Shown one piece after another: positions 36,741-60,142 of a DNA stretch of 64,000 nucleotides. The notes under the pieces were generated by a model. It made no database searches and was not told where the DNA came from. It worked only from the letters and a program-made list of their open reading frames with translations. This DNA is from an uncultured Actinomycetes bacterium (GTDB lineage Bacteria; Actinomycetota; Thermoleophilia; Gaiellales; JALYLC01), in the NCBI GenBank assembly GCA_963713435.1, contig CAVQLU010000007.1, positions 601,960-665,959 of the forward strand. Reading direction: 5' to 3'. How positions within the stretch are numbered: position 1 is the stretch's first letter; every line of letters starts with the position of its first letter. The translations under genes were made by a program, and so were the position numbers.

Positions 36741-36839
36741 CCGCCCCGGGTCCTGCGACCGCAGGTTCGCGGCTTTCCCGCTCGCCGGATACGAGCCCAC
36801 CCCGATGAGCGGACGGCGCCTGCGAGGCAGGCTGCAGTC

Positions 36840-37319
36840 GTGTTAGGCGACCTGACGCCCGAGGAGATCGAACGCTTGCTGCGCAGCGAGGCGATCGGGC
36901 GAATCGGCTGCTACGGGTTCGGGCGCCCCTACGTCGTCCCCGTCACCTACGCCTATGACGGCGTTGCCGTCTACTGCCACTCGCGCGAGGGCCTCAAGCT
37001 GCGCATGATGAGGAACCACCCGACCGTCTGCTTCGAAGTCGACCGCGTGGACGGCGTGTCGGACTGGCAGTCCGTGATCGCGACCGGGAGATTCTCCGAG
37101 CTCGAGGCGATGGAGGCCGAGCTCGCGATGCAGTTGCTCGGGCGGCGCCTCGCCCCACTCGTCCCGAGCGCCACGAGCCGGCCGGACAGCCGCATCCACT
37201 CCTCGGGCCACCCGTGGTCGGTCTTCCGCATCCTGCTGGCGGAACGAACGGGCCGCTTCGAGCGGCCGGACTCGCGAGACGAGGAGATCCGACGTGGCGT
37301 TGAAGCACCCGAAATCTGA
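36840..37319 (+). CDS. Pyridoxamine 5'-phosphate oxidase family (flavin/F420-binding split-barrel) protein.
   Basis: This is an intact 159-aa ORF with LTPEEIERLLRSEAIGRIGC...PYVVPVTYAYDG...VYCHS. Confidence 0.7.
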   Translation: MLGDLTPEEIERLLRSEAIGRIGCYGFGRPYVVPVTYAYDGVAVYCHSREGLKLRMMRNHPTVCFEVDRVDGVSDWQSVIATGRFSELEAMEAELAMQLLGRRLAPLVPSATSRPDSRIHSSGHPWSVFRILLAERTGRFERPDSRDEEIRRGVEAPEI

Positions 37320-37554
37320 ACGGACCTCGAGACAGGATCTGGCACCGTCGCCGATCTTCGGCCTCGAGGGCATGCGCATCCCGCGCCGCACGTTGCGGCA
37401 GGGACCGATTCCGCCGGACGTTGCCTATCGGGTGATCCACGACGAGCTGATGCTGGACGGTAACGCTCGCCTCAACGTTGCGACCTTCGTGCGCCGAGGA
37501 GCAGGGCTTCCACCACTGAAGGCCGCACATTCGGCGGCAACCACTGCGGCGTGA
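37294..37554 (+). pseudogene. Remnant of a glutamate decarboxylase gene; only about 50 N-terminal codons of homology remain.
   Basis: Positions 37339-37491 encode ...MRIPRRTLRQGPIPPDVAYRVIHDELMLDGNARLNVATFV, which matches the GAD N-terminus (..IHDELxLDGNxRxNLATFV). Homology stops abruptly after ATFV, and the PLP domain is absent. Confidence 0.7.
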
Positions 37555-37612
37555 CGACAGCCGGCGCGTGGCTGAGCCCACTTCCCGATCGGCGCCGAGG
37601 CTCGCCAAGAGA

Positions 37613-37640
37613 CGGCCGCCCCGGTGCCCCGGGGCGGCCG
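37613..37640. terminator. Perfect 12-bp GC stem / 4-nt loop hairpin between convergent genes.
   Basis: CGGCCGCCCCGG-tgcc-CCGGGGCGGCCG. Confidence 0.6.
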
Positions 37641-37653
37641 ATCTACCAGGACC

Positions 37654-38100
37654 TCAGGCCCCCGCGGCAGCCGGGACGGCTGCCTTGCGGACGATCGTGA
37701 CCGGCACCGGCGACTGCCGGATGAGCGCGTGGGAGACGCTCCCGAGCATCACGCCGGCGATTGCGCCATGCCCGCGCGAGCCGACGACCAGCAGGTCGAC
37801 GCCGAGCTCGTGCACAGCGGACACGATGTTGTCCACCACAGGGCCGCGAGCCGTGTGGGGCGTCGCCTCCACCCCGGCTTCCCTCGCACGCTCCGCGGCG
37901 GCCGCTGCGATGCGCTCGGCGCCATGCTCCTCATCGACTTCGAGGACGGCAGGACTGGGTCCGGTGTGGCCCACCGGCAATGGCGGCCGTACCGCAACCA
38001 CCTGCAGCGACGCGCCCAGCTCGCGGGCCAGTTCGATGGCGACCTCGAGCGCCTGCTCTGCAGATTCGCTGCCGTCGGTGGCGATCATGATGTTCTTCAT
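37654..38100 (-). CDS. Universal stress protein (UspA family).
   Basis: This is an intact 148-aa ORF with MKNIMIATDGSESA and VVGSRGHGAIAGVMLGSVSHALIRQSPVPV. Confidence 0.9.
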   Translation of the reverse strand: MKNIMIATDGSESAEQALEVAIELARELGASLQVVAVRPPLPVGHTGPSPAVLEVDEEHGAERIAAAAAERAREAGVEATPHTARGPVVDNIVSAVHELGVDLLVVGSRGHGAIAGVMLGSVSHALIRQSPVPVTIVRKAAVPAAAGA

Positions 38101-38120
38101 GACATCTCCTCTCGGTGGCG

Positions 38121-38142
38121 CCTCGAACGTCCGGGTTCGAGG
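38121..38142 (-). promoter_or_regulatory. Perfect 8-6-8 palindrome in the USP 5' leader, just upstream of the SD.
   Basis: CCTCGAAC-gtccgg-GTTCGAGG lies 21-42 nt upstream of the ATG at 38100. Confidence 0.4.
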
Positions 38143-38191
38143 CTCCTGCCGAGCATCGCGCGATCCGGCCGCAGCGGCATCGGGGAGATCG

Positions 38192-38217
38192 GCGGAAACC
38201 GCATTCGGCTTTCCCGC
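38192..38217. promoter_or_regulatory. Imperfect palindrome GCGGAAACCGCATTCGGCTTTCCCGC, a candidate operator about 105 bp upstream of the USP start.
   Basis: Both halves match a recurring CGG(G)AAA(N)CCGC half-site seen upstream of other operons in the 36.8-60 kb region. Confidence 0.4.
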
Positions 38218-38235
38218 ACTTCCCGGACCGGGCCG

Positions 38236-40900
38236 CTACCAGGTCTTGAGGCGCGCCGTGCCGCCGCCGCGACGCACGCGGATGCGGCGATCGATCGCGA
38301 CGCACCCGGTGCTCGTGGCGAGAACCGGATTGAGATCGAGCTCGCAGACTTCGGGCAGGTCGAGCGCCAGAGCCGAGAGACGATGGAGAAGATCTGCCAG
38401 CGCTGCCGCGTCGAGCGGAGCCTTGCCACGGAAGCCGGCGACGAGCCGTCCGACGGCACCACCGGTCACGAGCTCGTCGGCATCGACGTCCGTCAGCGGC
38501 GCAATGCCGATCGCGACGGCCGAGACGAGCTCGGCGAAGATGCCGCCGAGACCGAGGGCCACGAGCGGACCGAAGACGGGATCGTGGACGACGCCCGCGA
38601 TCAACTCGGTGCCCTCGAGCATCGGCTGCACGAGCACGCTTCCACCGATACGCGTGGCGGCAGCTCGCACGGCGGCCGCGTCACGGAGATCGAGTGCCAC
38701 GCCACCGGTCTCGGTCTTGTGTGCACCTGCGACCGCCGACTTGACCACGACCGCCCCGCCCAAGGATTCGGCTGCGAGCACCGCGTCGCGCGGTCCTTCT
38801 GCGAGTACCTCGGAGGCGAGCGGGATGCCGTAGGCCTCGAGCAGTCTCCTGCTCTGCCGGACATCGAGCCACGCCTCATCTGTGGCGCGGAGCGCCGTCA
38901 CGACGATGGCGCGAGCGGCCGCGCGGTCGACTCCGGTCAGTGTCGGTACGACACCTTCGCGCCGCCGCAGCCAGGCGGTCCTCTTCGCAGCTACGCCGAG
39001 CGCGGCTGCGGCACTCTCGGGAGAGGCGAACGTCGAGGCATTGACGAGCGGCTCATAGGCATCCGAGCCGGCATCCGCGAGCAGCACTGCGACCACGGGC
39101 TTCGTTCGTCCGGCCACGCCGGCAGCGCGGTCGATCACGTGTGCGACGTCCGTCGCGGTGGCGAGCACCGGACGTACGAACAGGATGCAGACGGCATCGA
39201 AGGCGGCATCCGCGAGGACGAGCGGCAACACGGCCTCGAAGGTCTCCGCGGTCGCCGAGCCAAGCAGATCGATGGGATTGGCGCGGCTGCTCTCGGCCGG
39301 CAAGACCGCCCTCAGCGCCTCGGCCGTCGCACGCGAGGGCGCGGGCAGCACCAGGCCCTGGCCTGCGCATGCGTCGGCAAAGAGGATGCCGAGGCCGCCG
39401 GCATTCGTCACGACGGCGACATTGGGGCCGAGCGGGAGCGGTTGCGACGAGAGCAGGGCGGCGGCGTCGAGGAATTCCGAAAGCGTCTTGACGCGGAGGA
39501 CGCCGGCCTGATGGAAGAGCGCGTCGACGGCCGCGTCGGAGCTCGCGAGCGCCGCCGTGTGGGAGGCGGCTGCACGTGCCCCTGCGGCGGTCGCGCCGCC
39601 TTTGAGCGCCAGCACGGGCTTCCTCCGCGCCACCCGGCGGGCGACGCGCCCGAAGCGGAGAGGATTGCCGAAGCTCTCGAGATACAACGCCACGACCGCG
39701 GTGGCCCCATCGTCCTCCCAGTACTCCAACAGGTCATTGGAGCTCACGTCGGCCTTGTTGCCGAGAGACACGAAATCCGAGAGACCGAGTCCGCGCGCAC
39801 GGGCCTGCTCCACGACGGCGAGGCCGAGCGCCCCGCTCTGGGAGGCGAATCCCACATCGCCGGGCGGAAGCGGGCCGGCGGCGAACGTGGCGTTGAGCTG
39901 GTGCGCGGATGAAGCGACACCGAGGCAGTTCGGGCCGATGAGGCGCCCGCCGTGAGCCCGCACGGCGTCCATCAGCGCCTTCTGTCGAGCGGCGCCCTCG
40001 GGTCCCACCTCGGCGAAGCCGGCGGAGATGACGCAGACAGAGCGAACGCCCGCCGCGAGCGCGTCATGCGCGGCGGCGAGCACCCCGTCGGCCGGCACGC
40101 AGATGAGCGCGAGATCGACCCGCGGACTCGCATCCGCGAGAGTGGTCGCTCCCGGCACTCCCCCCACGGCCTCCCCGCGCAGGTTGACCGGAACGACGGG
40201 TCCGGGAAAGTGCCCTGCGAGCACGTTCCTGAAGAGCTCGCCTCCGATCGTGCCTCGGCGCGCCGACGCGCCATACACGGCGATCCCCGCGGGCGCGAGG
40301 AATGCACGAAGGGAAGCTGCGACACCGACGTGATCGCGATCGTCAACCCGTTCGACGTAGTCACGCGTCGGCTCGATCGACATCGTCGCCTCGATCACCC
40401 CGCGAGTCGCCCGCTGTTCCACGGAGAAGCCCGAGCCTGCCACCACTCCGAGCATCTGACGGTTGCCGTGCAGGATCTCGAAAACGAGTCGCTGGATCCC
40501 TGCTGCGGCAGCGCGCCCGGCGAGTTGCTCGAGGAGCCGTGTCCCGACCCCGATGCCCTGCATCTCGTCGGAGACGGCGAATGCCACCTCGGCAGCACGT
40601 GGCATCGCGCAAGCGGTCGAAGCTCGCGAGAGCCACCACGCGTTCGTCACCGCCCTCGCCGAGCACGCCGATCAGCGCCCCGCGGGAACTCCAGTCGGGT
40701 TCGAGAAATGGCTCGATCAGGCTTGCTCGGGCCTGCACGGTCGCGTGAAAGCGCTGGGACATGCTGTGTGGCGAGAGCGCCGCGAGGAATGCCGTCAGCG
40801 CGTCGCGATCGGAACGGCACGGCTCCCGCAGGCGAAGCGTCCGGCCATCGCGCAGGATCACGTCGGCAACGACGCGATTCGAGCGTTCAGCAGTAGACAC
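38236..40900 (-). pseudogene. Pat-like protein: an N-terminal GNAT acetyltransferase fused to an NDP-forming acyl-CoA synthetase-like region (CoA-binding + ATP-grasp). One frame switch lies near 40590-40600.
   Basis: The N-terminus VSTAERSNRVVADVILRDGRTLRLREP... comes from ORF 40361..40900. AEVAFAVSDEMQGIGVGTRLLEQL (GNAT motif A), GIAVYGAS, IGPNCLG and FVSLGNKAD then follow in ORF 38236..40650. Confidence 0.8.
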
Positions 40901-41073
40901 AGGACCAGCCGTGCGCGGCGACGCCGATGAGCGTCCCCGCCTTGGCGCATGTGCCTAGATCCTCCCGGCTGCCTCTCATATGTCGAGGATGCCGTGGCAG
41001 AGGCCGGATGCCATCAGTGCCTGCACGCGTCGAGACTACGGGTGTCCCGCACTGCTGTATCGTCGGCGGCGGC

Positions 41074-41691
41074 GTGATCAAGGTCATCCTCGTCGACGAC
41101 CACCAACTCGTCCGCAGCGGCGTTCGTCGAGTGCTGGAGGCGACCGAGCGCTTCGACATCGTCGGCGAGGCGTCCGGCGTCCGTGAGGCGCTCGACCGTG
41201 CACGGGTCCTGCGCCCTGATGTGGTTGTGCTCGACCTGGGGCTGCGCGACGGTTCCGGACTCGATGCGATCGCGACGTTGCGCGAGGGTGGCGCACGCGT
41301 TGTGATCCTGTCGATGCAGGACGAGCCTGCCTACGCGCGCAAGGCCTTCGAGCTCGGTGCACAGGGCTATGTCATCAAAGACGCCGCCGACGAGGAGCTG
41401 GCGGGGGCCATCGACGCGGTACTCGCCGATCGCATCTATGTGCACCCGGCGCTGGCCGCCCGCCTGGTGATGAACGAGCCCGAGGACGATCTGACCGAGC
41501 GCGAGCGGCAGATTCTGCGCCTGATCGCGCTCGGCTACACGAACCAGGAAATCGCTGGGCAGCTGTATCTGAGCGTCCGGACGATCGAAGCTCATCGCCG
41601 GCACATCCTCGACAAGCTCCGGCTCTCCACGCGAGCCGACCTTGTCCGCTACGCGCTCGAGCACCGCATCGTCGAGCTCGCATCACCCTGA
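41074..41691 (+). CDS. NarL/LuxR-family response regulator (DevR/DosR-like).
   Basis: VILVDDHQLVR, DVVVLDLGL (phospho-acceptor Asp), VVILSMQDE and GYVIKD are present. The C-terminal HTH is LTERERQILRLIALGYTNQEIAGQLYLSVRTIEAHR. I choose the GTG start at 41074. Confidence 0.85.
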   Translation: MIKVILVDDHQLVRSGVRRVLEATERFDIVGEASGVREALDRARVLRPDVVVLDLGLRDGSGLDAIATLREGGARVVILSMQDEPAYARKAFELGAQGYVIKDAADEELAGAIDAVLADRIYVHPALAARLVMNEPEDDLTERERQILRLIALGYTNQEIAGQLYLSVRTIEAHRRHILDKLRLSTRADLVRYALEHRIVELASP

Positions 41692-41761
41692 GCCGAACAC
41701 ATCGCCGAGGCGGCAGCAGAGTGTGCGCAGGCAGCAGGCGTCACGACGACGCCTTCGGCTT

Positions 41762-41785
41762 CGGGAAAACCGCAGAGAGGTTTCG
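41762..41785 (+). promoter_or_regulatory. CGGGAAAACCGCAGAGAGGTTTCG, a candidate operator about 100 bp upstream of the USP/ATPase/xfp operon.
   Basis: It shares a half-site with 38192-38217, 53693-53708 and 60039-60053. Confidence 0.35.
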
Positions 41786-41873
41786 ATGTCCTCCCCGATG
41801 TTGGCCAAGCCATCGCTCAGGGATGCTCTCGGCATACCCGAGTCGAGCTCGGGACATTCGAGAGGAAGACGTC

Positions 41874-42360: not shown

Positions 42361-45075
42361 GTGGCCGGTTCCGGCATGTTGTCGCCTCCGGCCTCGGGTC
42401 GTCCGGTAACGCCATCCCGTGGGGCGACGGAGATCGCGGCGGCACCTGGCGGGCTGGACGCCGCAACCGCGGCACACCTGCCGATCCCGGAAGTTCTTTC
42501 CCTGCTCGCGAGCAGCGGCCATGGCCTGAGCGACGCAGAAGCCGCCGTGAGGCTCCGCAGCGTCGGGCGGAACGCGCTCGCCGTGCGGCGAGTCTCGGCC
42601 ATCGCCGTGTTCATGCGCCAGGTGCGGAACCCGTTGCTCCTGCTGCTCCTGGCCGCGGCGGCGGTCTCGGGCCTCACGGGCGACCCCACGGACGCCGCGA
42701 TCATCGCCGCGATCGTGGTGCTGAGCGTCGGCCTGAGCTTCTTCAACGAGTACCGAGCCGCGAACGCCGTCGCCGCGCTGCATCGCGACCTGCATCACAT
42801 GGCGCTCGTGTGGCGCGGGGGCGCACAGATCTCGATCGACGTGACCGATCTCGTGCCGGGCGACATCGTCGCGCTCCGCGTCGGCGACATCGTTCCTGCA
42901 GACCTGCGCTTGCTCGACGTGACGCAGCTCGAATGCGACGAGGCAGTGCTCACGGGTGAGTCGCTCCCGGTCGAGAAGACGACCGCGGCCTCGGCAGGCG
43001 ACTCGCCGCTGGATCTGCCGTCGTGCGCGTTCATGGGAACGGTCGTGCACCAGGGCGCGGGACGCGGCGTCGTCGTCTCGACGGGCAAGGCGACCGCCTT
43101 CGGCGCGATTGCCGCAGGGCTCTCCGAACGGCAGGCCGAGACGGCGTTCCAGGTTGGCCTGCGCGACTTCTCGAGCCTGCTCGTGAAGGTCGCCGGCGTT
43201 CTCTGCGTGTCGATCTTCATCATCAACGTCGCGCTCGCGCGACCGCTGGTCGAAGCGCTGCTGTTCTCGCTCGCGATCGCAATCGGCATCACCCCCCAGC
43301 TGCTGCCGGCCATCGTCTCGGTCAGCCTCGCGAGCGGGTCGCGCCGGCTGGCGCGCAAGCGCGTGCTCGTGAAGCGCCTCGTCACGATCGAGGATCTCGG
43401 CAACATCGAGATCCTCTTCACCGACAAGACCGGAACCCTGACCGAGGGCGCAATCACGTTCCGCGAGGCGCTCGATTGCGCGGGGGCTGCGAGCGCGAGC
43501 ACGCTCGCGTACGGCCTGCTCTGCAACGAGACGACGATGACCGATGCCGGCCCCGTCGGCGGCAATGCGCTCGATCTCGCGCTCGTCTCGGCGCCGGAGG
43601 CCGCCTCCCCGCTGGTCGCGGCCGGCGCGAGTGCCTGTCAGCGCCTGGGCCTCCTGCCATTCGACCACGAGCGTCAGCTCGCCTCCGTCGTCGTCCGCTC
43701 GGCGGGAGGCGTCACTCTGGTCACCAAGGGCGCTCCCGAGGCGGTGCTGGCGCGCTGTGCCGATGTGCCGGCGGCCGCCCACCGCGTGCTCGAGCAGCTC
43801 TTCGCCGACGGCGCGCGCGTGGTCGCCGTGGCGACGCGTCCGGCGCCTGGGCTCGGAGCACCGGCGCCGGAGGATGAACGCGATCTGCACCTCGAAGGGT
43901 TTCTCAGCTTCGTCGATCGCCCGAAGCCCGATGCCGGCCAAGCGGTCGGCGAGCTCGCGAGCCTCGGCATTGCAGTCAAGATCATCACCGGGGACAACGG
44001 CACCGTGGCCGGCAAGGTCTGCCGCGACATCGGCATCGCGGTCGACGGCACCCTGACAGGAGGCGAGGTCGATCACCTGAGCGACGACGAGCTTGCCGCG
44101 GCGATCCCGTCGACGACGATCTTCGCGCGTGTCGGGCCCGATCAGAAGTCGCGGCTGATCAGGATCGCGCGGCGCACGGGCGCCGACGTCGCCTTCCTCG
44201 GAGATGGAGTCAACGACGCCGTTGCTCTGCACGCCGCAGACGTCGGCATCTCGGTCGACTCGGCGACCGAGGTCGCGAAGGATGCGGCCGACATCGTGCT
44301 GCTCGACAAGGACCTCGGCGTGCTGGCCGACGGCGTGCGCGAAGGGCGGCGCATCTTCGCCAATACCCTCAAGTACGTCCTCATGGCGACGTCGTCGAAC
44401 TTCGGCAACATGTTCAGCGCAGCGGGCGCGTCGCTCTTTCTCTCGTTCCTGCCGATGCTCCCGTCGCAGATCCTGCTCAACAACCTGCTCTACGACGTCG
44501 GTCAGATGGCGATCCCGAGCGACCGGGTCGACCCCGAGACCGTTACGCGCCCAGCGGCCTGGGACATCGGGTTCGTGCGCAAGTTCATGATGGTCTTCGG
44601 GCCCGTCAGCTCGATCTTCGATTTCGCGACGTTCTTCGTGATGCTCGTGATCCTGAACGCCGGCCACAGCGAGTTCCGGAGCGGCTGGTTCGTGGAGTCG
44701 CTGGCGACGCAGACGCTCGTGATCTTCGTCATCCGCACCCGGCGTGTTCCGTTCCTGCGCAGCCGTCCGAGCCGCCTGATGATCATCCTTCCGATCAGCT
44801 GCGCGACGATCGGCGCCCTCCTGCCCTTCACGCCGATCGCCTCTGCGCTCGGCTTCGCCGCGCTCCCGCTCGCCTTCTTCCTGATCCTGCTCGGCATGAT
44901 CGCCACCTATCTCGTGCTCGTCGAACTCGTCAAGGCGCGCTTCTACGCTGCGCACGAACGGCCGCGGCGGCAGCGCCCGACCAGTGAGCAGAAACGGCAC
45001 CGTCACATCCACCGCCGCGCGCGGCGCTTCACACATCACGCGTCCTTCGCACCGGCACTGAGGAGTCAGCCATGA
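42361..45075 (+). CDS. Cation-transporting P-type ATPase, MgtA-like.
   Basis: This is an intact 904-aa ORF with TGESLPV, DKTGTLT, TGDN and [10 protein letters not shown]. About 10 TM segments are visible. Confidence 0.85.
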
Positions 45076-47463
45076 GCCGCACGAGCGAACCGAGCGCCAC
45101 GGAACCCCTGACTGCCGACGACCTTGCCCGGCTCGACGCCTGGTGGCGCGCGGCCAACTACCTCGCGGTCGGGCAGATCTACCTGCTCGCCAACCCGCTG
45201 CTGCGCGAGCCCTTGCGCCCCGAGCACATAAAGCCCCGCCTGCTCGGCCACTGGGGAACGACACCCGGCCTCAATCTGCTCTACGCGCATATCAACAGGC
45301 TCATCCGGCTGCACGATGCGGACGCGTTGTTCATCGCCGGGCCCGGGCACGGCGGCCCGGCGATGTGCGCAAGCACATGGCTCGAGGGCTCCTACACGCA
45401 GCACTGGCCCTCGGTCACGCAGGACGAGGCCGGCATGCAGAAGCTCTTCCGGCAGTTCTCGTTCCCGGGCGGAGTGCCGAGCCATGTCGCGCCCGAGACT
45501 CCGGGATCGATTCACGAGGGCGGAGAGCTCGGCTACGCGCTCAGCCACGCCTATGGCGCCGCTCTCGACAACCCGGATCTGCTCGTCGCCTGCGTGATCG
45601 GCGACGGCGAGGCAGAGACGGGCCCGCTTGCGGCCAGCTGGCACGCGAACAAGTTCCTCGATCCGGCGACCGACGGAGCGGTGCTGCCGATCCTGCATCT
45701 GAACGGCTGGAAGATCGCCAATCCGACCGTGCTCGCCCGCATCGGCGACGACGAGCTCGCCGACCTGCTGCGCGGCTACGGGCATCGCGCGATCTTCGTC
45801 AGCGGCGACGAGCCCGCGCGTGTTCATCAAGCGCTGGCGGCGGCGATGGACGAGGCCTACGCAGACATCCGCCGGTTCCAGCGCGAGGCGCGCGAGCACG
45901 GCACGAGCGAGCGCCCGCGCTGGCCGGCAATCATCCTGCGCACGCCAAAAGGCTGGACCGGGCCCGCGAAGGTCGACGGAGTCCAGGTCGAGGGCACGTG
46001 GCGCGCACACCAGGTACCGCTGGCGGGCACGCGTGAGAACCCCGAGCACCTCGCAGCTCTGGAGCGCTGGATGCGGACCTACCGGCCGGAGGAGCTCTTC
46101 GACGACGACGGCCGCCCTGTTGCGGCGATCCGCGCGCTCGCCCCGGGCGAGCCGAAGCGCATGGGCTCGAGCCGGCACGCGAACGGCGGGGAGCTCCTGC
46201 GCGAGCTCGACCTCCCCGACTTCCGCGAGTTCGGGGTCGCGGTGGCGCAGCCGGGAGGCGCGACGAGCGAGGCGACGCGCGTCCTCGGAAGCTACCTCCG
46301 AGAGGTCATGCGACGGAGCTCCGAGGCGCGCAACTTCCGCCTCGTCGGCCCCGACGAGACGGTCTCCAATCGCCTCGGCGCGGTGCTCGAGGTGACGAGC
46401 CGGGCCTGGATGGGCGAGCGGTCTGCGACTCGACGAGGGCCTCGCAGCCGACGGGCGCGTGATGGAGATCCTCTCCGAGCACGTCTGCCAGGGGTGGCTC
46501 GAGGGCTATCTCCTCACCGGCCGCCACGGCATGTTCTCCTGCTACGAGGCGTTCATCCACATCGTCGACTCCATGTTCAATCAGCACGCGAAATGGCTCA
46601 AGGTCACGCGCGGCATCCCGTGGAGGCAGCCCATCGCGTCGCTCAACTATCTGCTCACCTCACATGTCTGGCGCCAGGATCACAACGGCTTCTCACATCA
46701 GGATCCCGGCTTCATCGACCACGTCATGAACAAGAAGGCCGAGGTGATTCGCGTCTACCTGCCGCCCGACGCGAACTGCCTGCTCTCCGTCGCCGATCAC
46801 TGCCTGCGCAGCCGCAACTACGTCAACGTCATCGTGGCCGGCAAGCAGCCGGCACCGACCTGGCTGACGATCGAGGCGGCTGCCGATCATTGCGCGCGCG
46901 GGCTCGGCGTGTGGGACTGGGCATCCTGCGAGGGCGAAGAGGATCCCGACCTCGTCATGGCCTGCGCCGGCGACGTCCCCACGCTCGAGACGCTGGCCGC
47001 CGTGAGCATGCTCCGCACGCGCTTTCCGCAGCTTCGGGTGCGCGTCGTGAACGTGGTCGATCTCATGCGCCTGCAACCGGCGGGCGAGCACCCGCACGGT
47101 CTCTCGGACGCCGATTTCGACGCCATCTTCACGACCGACAAGCCGGTGATCTTCGCCTATCACGGGTATCCGTGGCTGATCCACCGCCTCACCTACCGCC
47201 GCACGAATCACGGCAACTTTCACGTTCGCGGCTACAGGGAGGAAGGCACGACGACCACGCCGTTCGACATGGTCATGCTCAACGAGCTCGACCGCTTCCA
47301 TCTCGTGATGGACGCGATCGATCGCGTGCCGCAGCTCGGCGGCCACGCGGTGGTCGACCGCCAGGCGATGGTCGACGCGCGCGCCGAGGCACGGCGCCAT
47401 ACGCGAGAGACCGGCGCGGACATCGCGGAGGTCACCGATTGGTCGTGGTCGCCGACGGGCTGA
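45072..47463 (+). pseudogene. xfp: Xylulose-5-P/fructose-6-P phosphoketolase with a single frame switch near 46421-46430.
   Basis: [30 protein letters not shown] and GDGEAETG are present. After the switch come [24 protein letters not shown] and FSHQDPGF (ORF 46459..47463). The ATGA start overlaps the ATPase stop. Confidence 0.9.
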
Positions 47464-49119: not shown

Positions 49120-49958
49120 GGCTCGTCAGCGCACGCCACGGGGTACGCTGCGAGCGCCGCGATCAGCGGGCCGACGCTCCCCGTCACCTCGCAGCGGAGG
49201 GCGTTCGCACCCGCGGCGATGACGTGCACACCTGGAAGCGGCGGAAGACTGGGCGCCGGCCCCTCGAAGGCGACCTCCACGGTCTGGGCGACGAGGTGCC
49301 GGAGGTCGGCCAGCGTGCCCTCGTCGACGAGGCGTCCCTCGCGCAGAATGCCGACGCGGTCGCAGAGCGCCTCGACCTCGCTGAGGATGTGCGACGAGAG
49401 AAACACCGTCTGGCCGCGCCCCTTCGCCTCGAGCACCGTCTCGCGAAAGGCCATTTCCATGAGCGGATCGAGCCCGGCCGTCGGCTCGTCGAGAATCAGG
49501 AGTTCGGCGCGGGTGGCGAACGCAGCGACGAGCTGCACCTTCTGCCGGTTGCCCTTCGAGAGCGCTCGCACCTTTTTCCGGGTGTCGAGCTGGAACCGCT
49601 CGACGAGCACGTCACGATAGGCCGTGTCGGTCCCCCCGCGCACCTTCGCCATGAACTCGAACGTCTCGGCGCCGGTCAGGCTCGGCCAGAGCATCGGCTC
49701 TCCCGCGACATACGCCACCCGGCGATGCGCAGCCACCGCTTCGCTCCAGGCATCCAGGCCGAAAACCTCAGCGCGGCCGGCGCTCGGGCGATGCAATCCG
49801 AGCAGGAGCCTGATGGTCGTGGTCTTGCCCGCTCCGTTGGGTCCGAGGAAGCCGTAGACCTCGCCCGCCGCGATGGAGAGCTCGAGCGAATCGAGCGCGA
49901 GCGTGCCCCCGTAACGCTTCGAGAGTCCGTGCGCGGTGATCGCATCCACGTCAGGCAA
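49116..49958 (-). CDS. ABC transporter ATP-binding protein.
   Basis: Walker A GPNGAGKTT, the signature LSKGNRQKV and Walker B LLILDEP are present. Confidence 0.9.
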   Translation of the reverse strand: MPDVDAITAHGLSKRYGGTLALDSLELSIAAGEVYGFLGPNGAGKTTTIRLLLGLHRPSAGRAEVFGLDAWSEAVAAHRRVAYVAGEPMLWPSLTGAETFEFMAKVRGGTDTAYRDVLVERFQLDTRKKVRALSKGNRQKVQLVAAFATRAELLILDEPTAGLDPLMEMAFRETVLEAKGRGQTVFLSSHILSEVEALCDRVGILREGRLVDEGTLADLRHLVAQTVEVAFEGPAPSLPPLPGVHVIAAGANALRCEVTGSVGPLIAALAAYPVACADEP

Positions 49959-51876
49959 GCTTCGCAGCTCGCCATGCTCGGTTCACCGGGAAGCGGCGGC
50001 GCGTGCCCTGCTGCGGACCGTGCAGCGCACGCAGGGCATTGAGGATGGCTGCGACATCGATGACCTCCTGGGCGATCGCGCCCTGCAGCGGCGTGATTCC
50101 GCCGAACGCGGCGATGACCATCAGCACCGCGCTGAGACCCATGCCGATGACGATGCCGGTGCGGGCGATCGACAGGGTGTCCCGCCCGATCTCGAGCGCC
50201 TCGGCGACGCGCCCCAGATCGTCGACCAGCACGACCGCGTCCGCCGCATCGGACGAGATCGTGCTGCCCGTGGCACCGAGCGCGATTCCGACATCGGCTG
50301 CTGCGAGCGCAGGCGCGTCGTTCAGTCCGTCGCCCACCATCACGACCGTCTCGCCCGAGCGGCGCAGCGAGCCCACCACCTGGGCCTTCGACTCCGGCGT
50401 CGCCTCGGCGCGGACGTCGTCGATGCCGGCCGCCCGGCCGACCTCGTTCGCCACCGCCGTGGAGTCGCCCGTCAGCAGCACCGGGCGCGAGCCCGTGCGT
50501 CGAATGCGGTCGACGACGAGAGGCGCGTCTTCTCGCAGGCGATCGGAGCAACGGATGACGCCCGAACGCCCGCCGTCCACCGAGACCCACACCTCGGCCA
50601 TCCCGGGCGACGCCGGCCCATCAGGCTCGAGGCCCACGAACGACGCGCTCCCCACACGCGTCCGCCTGCCGCCGACGATTGCCTCCACGCCATCGCCGTA
50701 GCTCTCGTGGAACTCAGCGGCCGGTTCGAGGGCCAGCCCCCGCACGACCGCCTCGGCGCGAATCGCCGCAGCCAGCGGATGCGCCGATTGCTGCTCGGCC
50801 GCCGCGGCTGCAGCCAGCAGGTCGGCCGGCGCCTCGATGACGCGAGGATGGCCGGTGGTGAGCGTGCCGGTCTTGTCGAACACCACGACCGTCGCCGCGC
50901 CGAGCCGCTCGAGTGGAGTGCCGCCCTTGACGACGATGCCGCGCCGAGCCGCACGCGCCAGACCCGAGACGAACGCGATGGGCGTAGCCAGGATGAGTGG
51001 ACACGGCGTCGCGACGACGAGCACGGCAAGCGCGGCGACAGGCGAGCCGGAGATGATCCACCCGAGCGCCGCAACGGCCAGGGTGATGGGCAGGAAAACA
51101 ACTGCGGCCCGATCCGCCAGGCGCGCCGTGCGCGGCCTATCGGCCTCGGCGCTCTCGACAAGGCGCACGATGCGCGCGTACGTCGACGAGTCGGCGGCGC
51201 GCAGGGCGCGAACCTCGATCGCCTCGCCGACGACACTCGCGCCGCTGCGGATCTCATCGCCCCGCTCGCGACCCACAGGGAGCGGCTCGCCTGTCAGAGC
51301 GGCCTCGTCGAGCACCGCGCGCCGGCTCGCGAGCGTGCAGTCCACCGGCACGATCTCACCGGCGAAGACGAGCAGATCGTCACCCGCGACGACCTGACCG
51401 GCCGGCACGTCCACGGTGCCGGCGTCCCTGCGCATGTGGGCTACCGCAGGCGCACGCGCCGCGAGCGCGGCGAGCTCGCTGCGGGCACGACGGAAGGCGC
51501 GCTCGTCGAGCAGCTCGCCTCCCGACAGCATCAGCGCGACCACGAGGCCTGCAAGCAGTTCACCCAGGAGCAGGGCACCCACCATCGCCAGCAGCGCGAT
51601 GACGTCGGCTCCCAGCTGGCCGTGCAGCATGCGGCGCGCCACCGCGTAGGCAAGCGGCCCGACAACGGCAATCAGGGCGATTGTCCAGACGATCTCGGCG
51701 GCCTGCGTCTCACCGACGGCGGTCAGCACGAGACCGGTGACGAGCGCCAGCGCGACAGCAGCCGGGACGAGGAGGCTTCTCACCTCCCCATCCTCGGTCG
51801 GCGCGAAGCTGCACGCATCGGCGGCCGCCCGACAGCGACTAGGTAGGAATCCGCAGCGCGATCGCGAGGTTCTCAC
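49951..51876 (-). CDS. Heavy-metal (P1B-type) P-type ATPase without an N-terminal metal-binding domain, carrying a TM motif TPCP.
   Basis: TGEPLPV, VATPCPLILATP, DKTGTLT, SAHPLA and GDGLNDAPAL are present. The start is either the GTG at 51876 (GTGA overlap with an upstream open frame) or the GTG at 51783. Confidence 0.8.
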   Translation of the reverse strand: MRTSRSRCGFLPSRCRAAADACSFAPTEDGEVRSLLVPAAVALALVTGLVLTAVGETQAAEIVWTIALIAVVGPLAYAVARRMLHGQLGADVIALLAMVGALLLGELLAGLVVALMLSGGELLDERAFRRARSELAALAARAPAVAHMRRDAGTVDVPAGQVVAGDDLLVFAGEIVPVDCTLASRRAVLDEAALTGEPLPVGRERGDEIRSGASVVGEAIEVRALRAADSSTYARIVRLVESAEADRPRTARLADRAAVVFLPITLAVAALGWIISGSPVAALAVLVVATPCPLILATPIAFVSGLARAARRGIVVKGGTPLERLGAATVVVFDKTGTLTTGHPRVIEAPADLLAAAAAAEQQSAHPLAAAIRAEAVVRGLALEPAAEFHESYGDGVEAIVGGRRTRVGSASFVGLEPDGPASPGMAEVWVSVDGGRSGVIRCSDRLREDAPLVVDRIRRTGSRPVLLTGDSTAVANEVGRAAGIDDVRAEATPESKAQVVGSLRRSGETVVMVGDGLNDAPALAAADVGIALGATGSTISSDAADAVVLVDDLGRVAEALEIGRDTLSIARTGIVIGMGLSAVLMVIAAFGGITPLQGAIAQEVIDVAAILNALRALHGPQQGTRRRFPVNRAWRAAKLA

Positions 51877-52147
51877 CGATGGGTGGGAGCGCGCCGTCCT
51901 TCAAGCTGGGTGAACATGCAGACCGCCTCCCCCGACCACTGCGCGACCAATGCCGTCCTGCTGGGATCCGAGCAGTCCACCGGCAGCCGGGCGACGATCG
52001 AGGGCACGACCGGAACCTTGCTGTGCACCGAACACGGAGTCGCTGTCCACATCTGGAGCGAGATCGGCACTCCAGGTAGAAGCGAGTCGCGGCCGCACGC
52101 TGCGACAAGCCCGTTCTCGAGTGGCACGTGGCCGGAGGCGTTCGCGC

Positions 52148-52170
52148 GTAGGAATCCGCAATCGGATTGA
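52148..52170. promoter_or_regulatory. GTAGGAATCCGCAATCGGATTGA, containing the perfect 6-4-6 palindrome AATCCG-caat-CGGATT, about 78 bp upstream of the USP start.
   Basis: The 13-mer GTAGGAATCCGCA is repeated exactly at 51843-51855. The core is 13/16 identical to the core of the 38192-38217 site. Confidence 0.4.
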
Positions 52171-52237
52171 GCGTGCGCCCCGATGGTCGCCGACAGCGAC
52201 GTTTCTACGGTGCTGGAAACACGAGGAAGGTACGCTT

Positions 52238-53680: not shown

Positions 53681-53795
53681 GCCCCACTCCACCGCGGAAA
53701 AGCCGCACGACGCGCGCGGGGCACCGCCGATGCGGGGGGCGCGTCCACCGGCGAAGCTCGTTCCAGCAAGCCACGTCAACGAAGGAGGGGTCGTC

Positions 53796-54152: not shown

Positions 54153-54155
54153 GCA

Positions 54156-55165: not shown

Positions 55166-55621
55166 CTACTCGGCCGACGCGCGCGGGCGTACAGACCGCG
55201 AGGCGAACCAGCCGAGCACAAGCGCCGGTGCAACAACGAACGTTGCGACGAGGATGAGTTGCGGCGTTCCGCGCCACCCCAACGTGACAGTCTCGATGAC
55301 ACCCCACGCGGCCAGGACGACGGCCATGGCGCCCGCCGCGAGCCCGGCATATCGCGGGGCAAAAAGCGTTACAGCGGCCGCCGCGAGCATGCCTCCCCCG
55401 ATCACGAACAGCAGAAAGAATCCGGGAACCGTGTAATCGGGAAAGACACTTCCCTCGAGCCATGCTTGCTTCGCTCCCAACCCCTCCGCGTCGTTGAGCA
55501 AGCCGTAGCCGCCGAAGATCGCGCCGAGGCCCACGACCAGCTCGATTGCAGCGATCGTGCAGCGAATTCTGCGGGGCGGCGGGGCGGCGTTTCGTGGGAT
55601 GGCGTGTGCGGCGGCGTTCAT
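55166..55621 (-). CDS. Membrane protein of unknown function (4 TM).
   Basis: AGGAGGG lies upstream of the ATG at 55621. The 151-aa ORF is hydrophobic and is probably co-transcribed with the ADH. Confidence 0.55.
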   Translation of the reverse strand: MNAAAHAIPRNAAPPPRRIRCTIAAIELVVGLGAIFGGYGLLNDAEGLGAKQAWLEGSVFPDYTVPGFFLLFVIGGGMLAAAAVTLFAPRYAGLAAGAMAVVLAAWGVIETVTLGWRGTPQLILVATFVVAPALVLGWFASRSVRPRASAE

Positions 55622-55812
55622 GGATTCCCTCCTGTCAATGCAGAGGAGAATCCCGCTCCGGGAACCCGGTCTCATCAGGGGAGCCGCGGAAGGCGACCGC
55701 GTAGTTTCCCGTCGCTCTCCGCGGGCCAACGCGGATGAGAGCGGCGCGCGCGCTGCTGATAGTTGTGCTGCGGCCGATGGCGGTCGCGACCCAGCGAAAG
55801 GAGACGCGCGCC

Positions 55813-57291
55813 ATGTCCATTTCCATGCCGGCCACGACTGCGCCGGCAGCCAGTGCGACCGAAACTCCGGCCCGGCCAAAGCTCAAGCGCTCGCTCGGCC
55901 TGTCGATGGCCACCGCGCTCGTGATCGGGAACATGGTCGGATCGGGAGTCTTCGGGCTGCCGTCGTCTCTTGCGGCCGTGGGACCGATCTCGCTGCTGGC
56001 CTGGGGCTTCACCGGCATCGGAGCGCTCCTGCTGGCGCTCGTCTTCGCCAATCTCGGTCGAGCCTATCCGCAGACCGGCGGACCCTACGCCTTCACGCGG
56101 CGCGCGTTCGGCGACTTCGCGGGCTTCTGGACGGCCTGGGGCTACTGGATCGCCGCCTGGGCGGGGAACGCCGCAATCGCAGTCATCTTCGTCAGCTACG
56201 GATCCGTCTTCTGGTCGAGTCTCGCAACCAACAACGTCCTCGCATTCGCAGTCGGGCTCTCCGTGATCTGGCTGCTCACACTCGTGAACGTCGCGGGCGT
56301 ACGCCAGTCGGGGCTGGTCCAGCTCGTGACGACGATCCTCAAGTTCGTGCCGCTGCTACTGATCGGCGTGATCGGGCTCTTCTACATGAACCGCGGCAAT
56401 TTCACGCCGTTCGACCCGAATCACGTCTCGCTCGTCGGTCACTGGCATGCGATCTCGTTCGCGGCGACGCTCACTCTGTGGGCGTTCCTCGGTCTCGAGT
56501 CGGCCACGGTGCCGGCTGAGGAAGTCAAGGACGCGGAGCGCACGATCCCGCGCGCCACCATGATCGGCACGCTCGCCACGACCGGCCTGTACGTGATTGC
56601 CACCGTCGCGATCATGGGCATCCTGCCCGCGGCCACGCTGGCGAAGTCGAACGCTCCGTTCGCCGACGCGGCCCAGTCGATCTTCGGCTCCTCCATCCTC
56701 GGCATGTCGCCTGCCAAGATCGTCGCGGCCATTGCGATGATCTCGACGTTCGGCGCGCTCAACGGCTGGATCCTGATTCAGGGCCGCGTGCCGCTGGCGG
56801 CCGCTCAGGACGGGCTCTTCCCGCGTCAGTTCGCGCAGGTCAGCGGCTCGCGCAAGACGCCCGTCGTCGGCCTCGTCGCATCGTCGGTCCTGCTGAGCAT
56901 CTTGCTCGGCATGAACTACCAGTCGTCGCTGACGGACACGTTCACGAAGATCATCATCCTCGCGACGCTCACGACGCTCGTGCCATACGCCTTCGCGGCG
57001 GCCGCTCAGCTGATGCTGATGTTCCGCGAGCCCGAGCGCTTCAGCGGCCGGCGCCTCGCGCTCGACGCGACGATCGCCGTGCTCGCCTTCGCCTACTCCT
57101 TCTGGATGATCTATGGCGCCGGACAGGAGTACATCGCGCAGGGCTTCCTCCTGCTGATGGCCGGCATCCCCGTGTACGTCTACATCAAGTGGCACCAGGC
57201 GAGGGCCGAGAAGGCCGGGATCGCCGTGGTCGCCAACCCCGAGCTCACGAGCAACGGCAGCGACCGGCCGCTCGTGAAGGCGGGGATCTAG
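55813..57291 (+). CDS. arcD: APC-family amino-acid permease, arginine/ornithine antiporter-like.
   Basis: AAAGGAG lies upstream of the ATG. The 492-aa ORF has about 12 TM segments and the motif [13 protein letters not shown]. It lies directly upstream of arcA. Confidence 0.8.
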
Positions 57292-57293
57292 CC

Positions 57294-58547
57294 ATGTCCA
57301 CCCGTACTCGCCAATCGGTGGCCGCCCGCGAGGCGGCCACCGAGAGCGTCTTCGGCGTCCACTCGGAGGCAGGGGTCCTGCACACGGTGCTCGTGCACCG
57401 GCCCGGGCTCGAGCTCGAACGCCTCACGCCGCGCAACAAGGATGACCTGCTCTTCGACGACGTCATCTGGGTCAAGCGCGCCCGGCAGGAGCACGACGCG
57501 TTTGCCGATGCGCTCGCCGACCGCGGCGTTGAGGTTCTCGAGGTACGGCACCTTCTCAGCGAGACGCTCGACCAGGCCGTGGCGCGCACCGATGTGATCG
57601 GCCGCACCATCAGCGCGGCAGGGCTCGGCCCGCGCCTCGGCCCCGCACTCGCGGAGTGGTTCCATGATCTGCCCTCCAGCGAACTGGCCGACCGGCTCAT
57701 CGGCGGCGTCGCCTACGACGAGCTGCCGTTTCCCGACACATCTCTGAGCGCGCTCGCCAGGCGCGGAGACTTCGTCCTCACGCCGCTCCCGAACCAGCTC
57801 TTCACGCGTGACACATCGGCCTGGGTCTACGGGGGCGTCTGCGTCAACCACATGGCGAAGCGCGCCCGCGTGCGTGAGGCGGTGCACATGAGCGCCATCT
57901 ACCGCCATCACCCGCGCTTTGCCGGAGGCGAGTTCTCGTACTGGAGCGAAGGGCATGCCGACGACCCGTCGCTCGAGGGCGGCGACGTGCTCGTCATCGG
58001 CAACGGCTGCGTGCTCGTCGGCATGGGCGAACGCACGCGACCGGCCGGCGTCGAGATGCTGGCGGATCGCCTCTTCGCCGCCGGCGCCGCGCACCTCGTG
58101 ATCGCGCTCGACCTTCCAGAGCGCCGCTCCGCCATGCACCTCGACACGGTCATGACGATGGTCGACGAGGACGCCTTCACGATCTACCCGGATGTCCGCG
58201 CAGGCCTGACCGCTTACGAGCTGCGGCCAGGGACGCACGGAGCCGTGGCCGAACGCGCCAATGACGCTCTTGCGAGCATCGCCGCCGCGCTCGACGTGCC
58301 GAAGTTGCGGCTCTTCGAGACCGGCGGCGACCGCTTCGAGGCCGAGCGCGAGCAGTGGGACGACGGCAACAACGTGCTCGCACTGGCACCGGGCGTCGTC
58401 GTCGCCTACGAGCGCAACGTCGCCACCAACACCCTGCTCCGCCGCAATGGCATCGAGGTCATCACCATCGCCGGCTTCGAGCTCGGACGCGGGCGCGGCG
58501 GTCCGCGCTGCATGTCCTGCCCGATCCTTCGCGATCCCGTCCGATGA
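57294..58547 (+). CDS. arcA: Arginine deiminase.
   Basis: [36 protein letters not shown] and the catalytic-Cys context [10 protein letters not shown] are present. Confidence 0.92.
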
Positions 58548-58570
58548 CCGTCGAGAGGAGGGACAGCACG

Positions 58571-59578
58571 ATGAGCACCGTGAGCAGCCTACGAGGACGA
58601 AACTTCCTGACACTCGCAGAGTTCTCCGGCGACGAGCTCACCTATCTACTCGATCTCGCCGCCGATCTGAAGAGCGCGAAGCGACAGCACTGCGAGGAGA
58701 AACAACTCGCCGGCAAACAGATCGCGCTGATTTTCGAGAAGGACTCCACGCGCACGCGCTGCGCCTTCGAGGTCGCCGCCCACGACCAGGGCGCGCACGT
58801 GACGTACATCGGCCCTGGCGGTTCGCACATGGGACACAAGGAGACCGTCAAGGACACTGCGCGCGTGCTCGGGCGCATGTACGACGCGATCGAGTATCGC
58901 GGCTTCGGAGAGGCCGTCGCCGACGAGCTCGCCGCATGGGCAGGTGTGCCCGTCTACAACGGCCTCACCGACGAGTGGCACCCAACGCAGATCCTCGCCG
59001 ACTTCCTGACGCTGCGCGAGCACATCGACAAGCCGCTCGCGGACATCTCGTTCTGTTACCTGGGCGACGCGCGCTTCAACATGGCCGACTCCTACCTGGT
59101 CGGCGGCGCCAAGCTCGGCATGGACATCCGCATCGCGAGCCCACGACAGCTCTGGCCGGATCAGTCGTACGTCGATCTCGCGCACTCGCTGGCGGAGGAG
59201 TCCGGCGCCACCATCACGATCACGGAGAGCATCGAGGACGCCGTTTGCGGCTGCGACGCGCTCGCCACGGACGTCTGGCTCTCGATGGGCGAGCCCGAGA
59301 ATGCGTGGGCCGAGCGAATCCGTCTCCTCCTGCCCTACCAGGTCAACGCGGGCGTGCTCGAGCTCACCGGCAACCCCGGCGTGAAGTTCCTCCACTGTCT
59401 TCCGGCCTTTCACAGCGCCGACACCGCAGTGGGCGCGACCATCCAGAAGCGCTTCGGCCTCGACGCACTCGAGGTCACCGACGACGTCTTCGAATCGCCT
59501 GCATCAGTCGTCTTCGACGAAGCCGAGAACCGGCTGCACACCGTCAAGGCCGTGCTCGTAGCAACGCTCGGCCGCTAG
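58571..59578 (+). CDS. arcB: Ornithine carbamoyltransferase (catabolic context).
   Basis: [24 protein letters not shown] and the FLHCLPAF (HCLP) motif are present. Confidence 0.92.
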
Positions 59579-59614
59579 TCCCGGCCTCCCACCCGACGAC
59601 GACAGGAGACACCC

Positions 59615-60010
59615 ATGAAAACCATCGTGGTTGCCACAGACGGCTCCGAGGGGGCAGGCGCCGCGCTCGAACTCGCAGCGCAATTCGCAGGCGAGACCGG
59701 CGCCCAACTCTGCTGCGTGAGCGTGGATGATTCACTCGACACCACCGGCATCGATCCCGCGCCCGAGCAGCGAGCGAGAGCCGGAGCGCAGCTGGCCCGC
59801 GAGTCCGGGCTCAAGGCAGAAGCCGTGGCAAAGGTCGGCCCGGCGGTCGAACGCATCATCGAGGTCGCGGACGAACGCGACGCCGACCTGATCGTCGTCG
59901 GGTCGCGCGGACATGGCGCGATCGTAGGCACGGTTCTCGGCAGCGTCTCCATGGGCCTCGTCCGGACGAGCCGGCGGCCCGTGTTGGTCGTGAAGAGCAG
60001 CGACGTCTGA
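59615..60010 (+). CDS. Universal stress protein (UspA family), short form.
   Basis: AGGAGA lies upstream of the ATG. MKTIVVATDGSEGA and VVGSRGHGAIVGTVLGSVSMGLVRTSRRPV are present. Confidence 0.88.
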   Translation: MKTIVVATDGSEGAGAALELAAQFAGETGAQLCCVSVDDSLDTTGIDPAPEQRARAGAQLARESGLKAEAVAKVGPAVERIIEVADERDADLIVVGSRGHGAIVGTVLGSVSMGLVRTSRRPVLVVKSSDV

Positions 60011-60142
60011 GCTGAGCTGCGTCGCAGCACCCGGCCCTTCGGAAAATCCGCAGACACGGGTGGGCGGCCGCACCGATGAGGTCGGAGCCGGAGCACGCGA
60101 TGCTGGGGGAATGGGCGCAGACACCATCCAGCAGGTCGTTGC

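Follow-up and report, generated by a model that had tools for sequence, protein, structure and literature searches.

Introduction

The described systems closest to the element studied here, a short motif recurring upstream of operons in a 64,000-nucleotide stretch of DNA from an uncultured soil actinobacterium of the Gaiellales (contig CAVQLU010000007.1 of assembly GCA_963713435.1, positions 601,960 to 665,959; hereafter the window, meaning the whole stretch), are DevR/DosR-DosS/DosT of Mycobacterium tuberculosis, OsdR/OsdK of Streptomyces coelicolor, the ComA box of Bacillus subtilis, and the lxa island of Burkholderia cenocepacia. The Dev box of DevR has the consensus GGGACT..AGTCCC. It is a palindrome of 18-20 bp in which G5 and C7 of each half-site are essential, and DevR promoters have two or more adjacent sites, as in the tandem of a distal box at -63.5 and a proximal box at -42.5 that adjoins the -35 element, and divergent genes share sites (PMC3177182). 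The OsdR box AGGGCCGATCGGCCCT conforms to the Dev box (PMC5069765). ComA, a NarL-family regulator, binds TTGCGG-N4-CCGCAA and requires for activation the degenerate repeats located between this box and the -35 (PMC4797271). The lxa island is activated by low oxygen and contains a palindromic motif 5' of most of its operons, with 17 intergenic sites (PMC3721108).

In this study, we found that the recurring motif of the window is the predicted upstream operator of a conserved promoter design of ~75 bp, which precedes genes of stress response, fermentation, and transport. We estimate a probability of roughly 60% that these promoters depend on an activator, with the motif as their distal operator, and that they define a DosR-like regulon for low oxygen or stress, shared by Gaiellales and, in a more diverged version, by Solirubrobacterales. 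What appears to be new, as supported in silico, is a DosRST-like regulon that has an operator of its own within a composite promoter of strict phasing, is conserved across Thermoleophilia, and is abundant in soil metagenomes. Gaiellales and Solirubrobacterales are among the most frequent Actinomycetota of soil, and we know of almost nothing reported on gene regulation in either. A search of the literature on Thermoleophilia with DosR or universal stress proteins (USPs), or on TGCGG/CCGCA, found no description of the motif in the papers listed.

Like DevR/DosR-DosS/DosT of M. tuberculosis, the locus combines a tandem-GAF HisKA_3 kinase of the haem-GAF kind with a NarL-family regulator and a USP-rich regulon near the two-component system, and its promoters resemble DevR promoters in layout, with a distal dyad at about -65, a second conserved block at -49 to -33 that may be a proximal site, and sites in divergent use. 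It differs in its operator, which is a 15-bp TGCGG-N5-CCGCA and not a Dev box according to a logo of 65 sites, in agreement with the initial annotation of the window, which had seen no match to the mycobacterial DosR box. It also differs in the invariance of CCGATG and SANNNT, described below, and in having a regulator merely 36% identical to DevR, in which R, E, and A replace K179, K182, and N183. OsdR/OsdK, a non-mycobacterial system of the DosR kind, resembles the locus in its surrounding USP-rich island and in its palindromic operator derived from upstream-region comparison (PMC5069765), whereas the window palindrome does not fit the Dev-box-type OsdR consensus. Both the Dev box and the OsdR box were tried as the identity of the operator, and neither published sequence matched. 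The ComA box shares the half-sites (T)TGCGG and CCGCA(A) as an inverted repeat, but has a 4-nt spacer as compared to 5 nt here and belongs to a quorum response, and the two regulators are related at the family level only (helix-turn-helix E 5e-8). The lxa island likewise unites USPs, alcohol dehydrogenase (ADH), a cation ATPase, ABC transporters, and two-component systems, but its motif is TGA-N6-TCA (Anr/FNR type) and CRP-family regulators lie in the island, neither of which is found in the window.

Architecture of the composite promoter

The window sites share TGCGG-N5-CCGCA, a palindrome of 15 bp whose A/T-rich centre is found in both orientations and whose left half may instead be CGTAG. 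In 8/8 of the initially annotated sites it is followed after 19-21 nt by C[CG]GATG (CCGATG, once CGGATG), and 20 nt past CCGATG comes a -10 hexamer, SANNNT, with the predicted start 7 nt after its T. This places the centre of the palindrome at about -65, CCGATG at -38 to -33, and the -10 hexamer at -12 to -7. All eight strings quoted in the initial annotation were recovered at their positions, and these sites are real, albeit an incomplete set, as the palindrome at 41037-41051 had been missed, and each of the palindromes at 51.85 and 55.70 kb is shared by a divergent pair of promoters. The window contains 9 palindromes and 11 such promoters (Table 1), and all sites are intergenic and correctly oriented for their genes. 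The wording proposed at first, CGG(G)AAA(N)CCGC, was too narrow, giving 3 matches as compared to 0.5 expected, all in the right 28 kb; the 15-bp palindrome is what the sites share. The motif itself was well recognized, but it is just the distal third of the composite promoter, CCGATG having gone unnoticed.

The 65-site logo was extended past the search matrix, so that further conserved positions lay outside the search. T, G, G, and C are conserved 12, 9, 7, and 2 nt 5' of the first C of CCGATG, whereas 27 and 31 nt 3' of that C stand A in 61/65 sites (-11) and T in 62/65 (-7), with purines ~7 nt past the -7 T. All nine window sites have A and T at the same fixed 27 and 31 nt. The second conserved block, tGCGnGnnnnCnCCGATG, spans about -49 to -33, with T (-49), G (-46), and CCGAT (-38 to -34) conserved at positions outside the search pattern and a TGCGG-like match at -49, 12 nt 5' of CCGATG, in 24% of the sites. 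The 5-nt spacer of the palindrome is present in every site of the logo, in which only short blocks are conserved and the spacers between them are not. Plausibly, CCGATG unites a proximal half-site (CCGA) with a -35-like xTGxCx whose spacer is 17 nt.

CCGATG is near-invariant, its conservation exceeding that of the palindrome, and together with the -10 block it occurs almost solely alongside the palindrome (52/81 occurrences, the others lying mostly within genes). This pattern could also be explained by CCGATG and SANNNT forming the promoter class of a dedicated alternative sigma factor or sigma-adaptor, with the palindrome as its upstream activator site, which would be compatible with a distal operator. 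The -10 of the regulon, which prefers G/C at -12 (T in 8/65 logo sites and in 15/109 of the metagenome matches listed), speaks for such a class, as in the same genomes TANNNT is found at leaderless promoters of the ordinary kind and at those of the kinase and regulator. However, A at -11, T at -7, and a start 7 nt on make up a housekeeping-type signature, and T, G, and C at -34, -33, and -31 agree with a usual -35 element and a spacer of 17 nt. In Solirubrobacterales, moreover, -12 is often T (22/51), and neither the window nor a set of ~190 genes located first after the motif yielded a sigma gene. We consider a dedicated sigma factor quite unlikely, and equally so a separate Thermoleophilia promoter class (CCGATG at -38 to -33, G/C at -12) read by a dedicated sigma factor or sigma-adaptor together with a response regulator; if true, the latter would be a two-key hypoxia promoter without a described counterpart in Actinomycetota.

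Two other roles of CCGATG were rejected. As a -10 element, be it of a class II promoter, of a sigma-28/WhiG-like promoter (GCCGATAA), or of an ECF promoter, it is ruled out by the true -10 of the logo 20 nt further on, and the sigma-28 and ECF consensus spacings do not fit these promoters. Its ATG is not a start codon or leaderless start either, as it lies in another frame than the genes and is not preceded by a -10. One promoter, that of the USP/P-type ATPase/phosphoketolase operon, has an extra (T/C)CGATG 14 nt 5' of CCGATG, which is kept in the window (41781-41800) and in its closest relative (locus L001, 11195-11214).

Several individual promoters recur in the loci of relatives. The L001 orthologue of the site of the GNAT/ADP-forming acyl-CoA synthetase (GNAT-ACS) gene is TGCGGGACATCCGCG-N19-CCGATG, 5' of the same gene, and the variant CGTAGGAAyCCGCA of the USP/carbamate-kinase-like operon promoter is also found 5' of a homologous 153-170-aa USP in L002, L006, L008, and L009. 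The L009 orthologue of the 118-aa membrane protein has a like promoter, and the membrane protein starting at 55621 is homologous to a 155-aa membrane protein of L009 that itself lies behind a site. Divergent promoters sharing one palindrome are also present in L003, L005, L008, and L013.

Table 1. Predicted composite promoters of the window and the candidate regulatory genes (+, forward; -, reverse strand)
Feature	Position	Strand	Elements
PNPOx-family gene promoter	36768..36840	+	palindrome CGCGGCTTTCCCGCT 36768-36782; CCGATG 36802-36807; -10 CAGGCT 36828-36833; predicted start 36840
Promoter of USP gene 37654-38100 (Usp domain)	38145..38218	-	palindrome TGCGGGAAAGCCGAA 38204-38218; CCGATG 38178-38183; -10 GATGCT 38152-38157; predicted start ~38145
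GNAT-ACS gene promoter, weaker	40979..41051	-	palindrome TGCGGGACACCCGTA 41037-41051; CTGATG 41012-41017; -10 CATCCT 40986-40991; predicted start ~40979; matrix score 11.6
Response-regulator gene core promoter, overlapped by the 41037-41051 palindrome	41037..41076	+	TACGGGTGTCCCGCA, 6 nt, TATCGT 41058-41063, 10 nt, GTG 41074
USP/P-type ATPase/phosphoketolase operon promoter	41760..41834	+	palindrome TTCGGGAAAACCGCA 41760-41774; CCGATG 41795-41800; -10 GATGCT 41822-41827; predicted start ~41834; orthologous site in L001 at 11174
P-type ATPase/ABC transporter operon promoter	51783..51855	-	palindrome TGCGGATTCCTACCT 51841-51855 (shared); CCGATG 51816-51821; -10 GAGGAT 51790-51795; predicted start 51783
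Second promoter on the 51841-51855 palindrome	51841..51914	+	AGGTAGGAATCCGCA; CCGATG 51876-51881; -10 CAAGCT 51902-51907; predicted start ~51914
USP/carbamate-kinase-like operon promoter	52146..52218	+	palindrome GCGTAGGAATCCGCA 52146-52160; CCGATG 52180-52185; -10 TACGGT 52206-52211; predicted start ~52218
Promoter of 118-aa membrane protein gene (ATG 53796)	53693..53765	+	palindrome CGCGGAAAAGCCGCA 53693-53707; CCGATG 53727-53732; -10 GAAGCT 53753-53758; predicted start ~53765
Membrane-protein (ATG 55621)/Zn-ADH operon promoter	55640..55712	-	palindrome ACGGGAAACTACGCG 55698-55712 (shared); CTGATG 55673-55678; -10 GATTCT 55647-55652; predicted start ~55640
Arginine deiminase operon promoter (permease, ADI, OTC)	55698..55770	+	palindrome CGCGTAGTTTCCCGT; CGGATG 55732-55737; -10 GATAGT 55758-55763; predicted start ~55770
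Receiver-only protein/GAF-GAF kinase operon promoter, best-scoring site	60038..60111	+	palindrome TTCGGAAAATCCGCA 60038-60052; CCGATG 60073-60078; -10 GATGCT 60099-60104; predicted start ~60111
NarL/LuxR-family response regulator, candidate operator-binding protein	41074..41691	+	Response_reg + GerE
Receiver-only protein (weak receiver domain), co-transcribed with the kinase	60143..60556	+	Response_reg 27 bits, cut-off 30.2
DosS/DosT-like sensor kinase	60582..62360	+	Pfam GAF-GAF-HisKA_3-HATPase

Predicted starts and leaderless genes

The predicted start coincides with the GTG start codon of the PNPOx open reading frame (ORF; 36840-37319) and with that of a P-type ATPase ORF (49951-51783, minus strand; GTG at 51783). 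Both GTG codons had been called independently, from third-position G+C, and since the predicted start falls on them the mRNAs of these two genes are presumed to be leaderless. In relatives, an in-frame start codon lies exactly on the predicted +1 in 16 of the 65 sites (~0.7 expected) and within 2 nt of it in 20, and at metagenome sites found by the pattern only, a start codon is at +0 or +1 in 38/115 among the matches listed. When all gene starts of these loci were surveyed, a leaderless peak appeared at the same 6-nt gap. The promoters thus offer start predictions at single-nucleotide resolution, which point to widespread leaderless mRNAs. As for the distance between motif and start codon, the similar spacing first reported is evident, but the range of 75-115 nt is not, as we obtained 65 nt for the leaderless pair and 85-111 nt for the remaining genes.

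These starts also bear on the earlier suggestion of a transcribed motif that folds into a small hairpin of the leader RNA, with a CGG/CCG stem and an A-rich loop. CGG and CCG can indeed pair, and a 4-pair stem closing the A/T centre is predicted at 2/8 sites and a 3-pair version at a third. However, the motif lies upstream of the predicted start, at about -65, from which two window genes and many genes in relatives are leaderless; it would therefore not be transcribed, and we rejected the hairpin. The fold energies of the eight sites, moreover, are no better than those of shuffled sequences (z -1.6 to +0.1), the stem bases are conserved in sequence, with variants such as GTAG...CCGC that disrupt the stem without compensation, the A/T centre is present in either orientation with the site used on both strands, and Rfam gave no match on the whole window. 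A transcribed hairpin is hardly credible on these grounds; the dyad symmetry, the A/T centre in both orientations, and the divergent sharing were counted for a DNA site bound by a dimer.

The rightward promoter at 51.85 kb has a predicted start 2 nt ahead of an 84-codon ORF without a Pfam match (51916-52170), which extends into the next promoter and may be either a small protein or a non-coding leader.

Enrichment in the window, related genomes, and metagenomes

CCGATG alone is not enriched (85 versus 72.5); only the combination is. With CSGATG at a frequency of 0.0012 per position, its coupling to the palindrome in 8/8 sites has P ~2e-19. High-GC DNA abounds in CGG and CCG, and CGG-N5-CCG alone is hardly enriched (260 versus 211), which is what would be seen if the motif were a chance similarity. 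Against chance, and likewise against copies of a repeated or mobile element, speak the coupling to CCGATG, the conservation of short blocks but not of spacers, the intergenic and correctly oriented placement of all sites, and the transfer of the element to other genomes, and we regard both origins as practically negligible.

This transfer was seen with a two-block matrix derived solely from window sites. In the window, the training sites score at least 18 and everything else at most 14.7, all of it within genes, and no score of at least 16 was obtained in the left 36 kb, for which the initial annotation had likewise reported no motif in regulatory positions. In the loci of relatives, which were fetched via the regulator, the matrix found 59 sites in 287 kb of Gaiellales (2.2 in shuffles) and 51 in Solirubrobacterales (7.8 in shuffles), whereas loci of unrelated phyla gave 3 as compared to 3.2 in shuffles. 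The closest relatives of the window regulator are from metagenome-assembled genomes of Gaiellales, at 70-92% identity, followed by Solirubrobacterales at ~50%. A strict palindrome search yields little in Solirubrobacterales because the left half there is GTAG, and the cultured relative Conexibacter sp. DBS9H8 (L065) has no site scoring at least 16 in its 20-kb locus. The exact composite pattern matches at least 120 metagenome contigs, with a mean G+C of 68%. Since the element is strict enough for an exact-pattern search, regulon members should be retrievable straight from metagenomes.

Sensor kinase, response regulator, and other candidate binders

The first GAF domain of the kinase matches the haem GAF-A structures of DosT and DevS with E values from 7e-43 to 5e-38, and the aligned HPPM stretch, which we take to hold the proximal haem histidine, is kept. 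Pfam and the structure match thus place in the window a tandem-GAF, HisKA_3, and HATPase_c kinase as is typical of DosR/DevR-type regulons, with haem binding predicted. In relatives, the regulator is the gene after the DosS/T-like kinase. The DevR sequence with which it was compared was checked against PDB 1ZLJ and 3C3W. Its recognition helix is SVRTIEAHRRHILDKL, and SVRT.E.HR.HI is common to the motif-adjoining regulators of Gaiellales, Solirubrobacterales, and metagenome contigs. In DosR, K179, K182, and N183 reportedly contact DNA in the structure of the complex, and the aligned R, E, and A of the window regulator lead us to expect a different box. Among the 120 motif-anchored contigs listed (527 kb), the kinase is present in 15 and the regulator in 13, usually as a kinase-regulator operon divergent from the motif.

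The local NarL-type regulator, which had been named as a possible binder from the start, is the best-supported candidate, as the dyad lies 5' of the start, its half-sites are of the ComA type, a copy lies on the regulator promoter, and the motif-anchored contigs are enriched in the pair; we infer from these points that it binds the operator. The copy in question, at 41037-41051, lies within the TANNNT promoter of the regulator gene itself, between its -35 and its -10. In L002, L004, L005, and L008, the kinase-regulator operon is preceded by the palindrome, 6 nt, TANNNT, 11 nt, and the start codon, whereas the distance from palindrome to -10 is larger in L006, L007, and L010.

Alternatively, the composite promoters could be real with the palindrome bound by another factor encoded elsewhere, such as an FNR/CRP-type, Rex, or WhiB-linked redox regulator, the two-component system being merely a member of the regulon. 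The lxa island is a precedent, since its motif is Anr/FNR-like despite the two-component systems inside it (PMC3721108), and the window regulator has no specific DevR signature, while the kinase operon itself lies behind the motif like any target gene. However, Pfam found no CRP/FNR-type regulator, other DNA-binding regulator, or sigma gene among the ~50 ORFs of the 64-kb window. The CRP-family screen covered the window, in which no HTH_Crp protein is present, and the sole cyclic-nucleotide-binding domain is fused to a pyridoxal phosphate (PLP)-dependent decarboxylase. CRP and Rex boxes are, moreover, unlike the GCGG/CCGC half-site. This half-site is that of the ComA box of the NarL family (PMC4797271) and unlike FNR-type half-sites (PMC3721108). 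With the palindrome on the regulator gene's own core promoter and with kinase and regulator strongly enriched on motif-anchored contigs, a factor encoded elsewhere seems unlikely.

Proposed mechanism

In the reading we favour, with the local regulator as operator-binding activator, the DosS/DosT-like haem-GAF kinase would phosphorylate the NarL-type regulator when O2 falls or NO or CO rises. A regulator dimer on the distal palindrome would then aid a second dimer onto the weaker proximal block, a TGCGG-like half-site plus CCGAT 7 nt apart instead of 5. Because the proximal block abuts or overlaps the -35-like xTGxCx, we propose that the regulator can recruit RNA polymerase to promoters without T at -12. 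A single palindrome could fire two divergent promoters, and the copy between the -35 and -10 of the regulator's TANNNT promoter would cause autoregulation, probably negative. The receiver-only protein behind the strongest site could be a phosphate sink or a kinase partner.

Several points weigh against this reading. The regulator is a generic NarL-family protein, for which VraR, NarL, and DesR score equal to or above DevR, and it reaches no NCBIfam (equivalog) cut-off, the NCBIfam matches of regulator and kinase being sub-threshold ones to MctR/MctS, NarL, and UhpB only. The distance from the palindrome to the kinase-regulator -10 varies (6, 14, 18, and 23 nt), so the geometry of autoregulation is not fixed. 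CCGATG, which would belong to a weak secondary site, is oddly better conserved than the presumed primary one, and the blocks are 23-25 bp apart centre to centre as compared to 21 for DevR boxes. In the lxa island, moreover, an Anr/FNR-type regulator, rather than the two-component systems encoded there, accounts for the motif (PMC3721108). Finally, fetching the loci of relatives via the regulator predetermines to some extent that they co-occur with the motif, a bias which the metagenome test offsets only partly.

Genes behind the promoters

The window is ~70% G+C, and its right 28 kb codes for three USPs, a PNPOx-family protein, GNAT-ACS, the NarL/LuxR response regulator, two P-type ATPases, phosphoketolase, an ABC transporter, a carbamate-kinase-like protein, Zn-ADH, arginine deiminase genes, the receiver-only protein, the GAF-GAF-HisKA_3 kinase, and cytochrome bd. 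USP operons account for three of the 11 promoters of the window, and in relatives 36 of the 65 first genes behind sites code for USPs, the others including GAF kinase, PPDK, GCS2, GNAT-ACS, PNPOx, P-type ATPase, flavodoxin, DUF1918, oxidoreductase, and membrane protein genes. A USP-rich regulon clustered around a two-component system, as is characteristic of DosR/DevR-type dormancy regulons, is thus present. Among the metagenome matches listed, the commonest first gene is Zn-ADH (15), followed by ABC ATPase (12), an unknown family (12), and membrane protein (11) genes, with further ones for USPs, SQR-like oxidoreductases, cupredoxin-like and CBS proteins, GAPDH, formate-THF ligase, cydA, and PFOR. 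This content is what would be expected of a low-oxygen or persistence regulon of the DosR/OsdR type.

If so, the promoter design may serve as a sequence-level handle on a low-oxygen or persistence programme comprising USPs, arginine deiminase, phosphoketolase, ADH, cytochrome bd, PFOR, and ion pumps, and it may be a case in which a DosS/T-type sensor was retained while the operator changed to ComA-like half-sites.

The unknown family (M..SYAV.W.E....GKLEL.., ~100-230 aa, usually leaderless), the first gene in 12 of the contigs listed, has no Pfam match; its loci are L095, L098, L132, L137, L151, L160, L175, L179, L182, L187, L189, L192, and L195.

Other features of the window

Some genes of the window have interrupted or unusual reading frames. 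The phosphoketolase gene (45072-47463) has a frameshift near 46.43 kb, with XFP_N and XFP positions 2-47 in one frame and XFP 51-177 and XFP_C in another, and is either a pseudogene or the result of an assembly indel error. The GNAT-ACS gene (38236-40905, minus strand) seems to be frameshifted near 40.6 kb, its N-terminal GNAT part, which gave a partial GNAT match and is homologous to the L001 protein, being out of frame with the remainder. ORF 5120-7378 joins a truncated copper amine oxidase (profile positions 2-251 of 407) to a short-chain dehydrogenase domain, probably as a further frame problem or an overlap artefact. At 21109-26167, a PLP-dependent decarboxylase with a C-terminal cyclic-nucleotide-binding domain adjoins an adenylate cyclase-AAA-TPR protein, which suggests a possible cyclic-nucleotide-controlled enzyme.

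Two large intergenic inverted-repeat elements, lie at 10426-10694 and 29892-30165; the arms of the first are 78 nt long with 85% complementarity, and those of the second 62 nt with 89%. Both are composed of GCACGCACGGGGTCAGACCCGCA-like subrepeats and have the look of miniature inverted-repeat transposable elements (MITEs) or repetitive extragenic palindromes (REPs), and a loose match to the motif (29986-30000) sits between the arms of the second.

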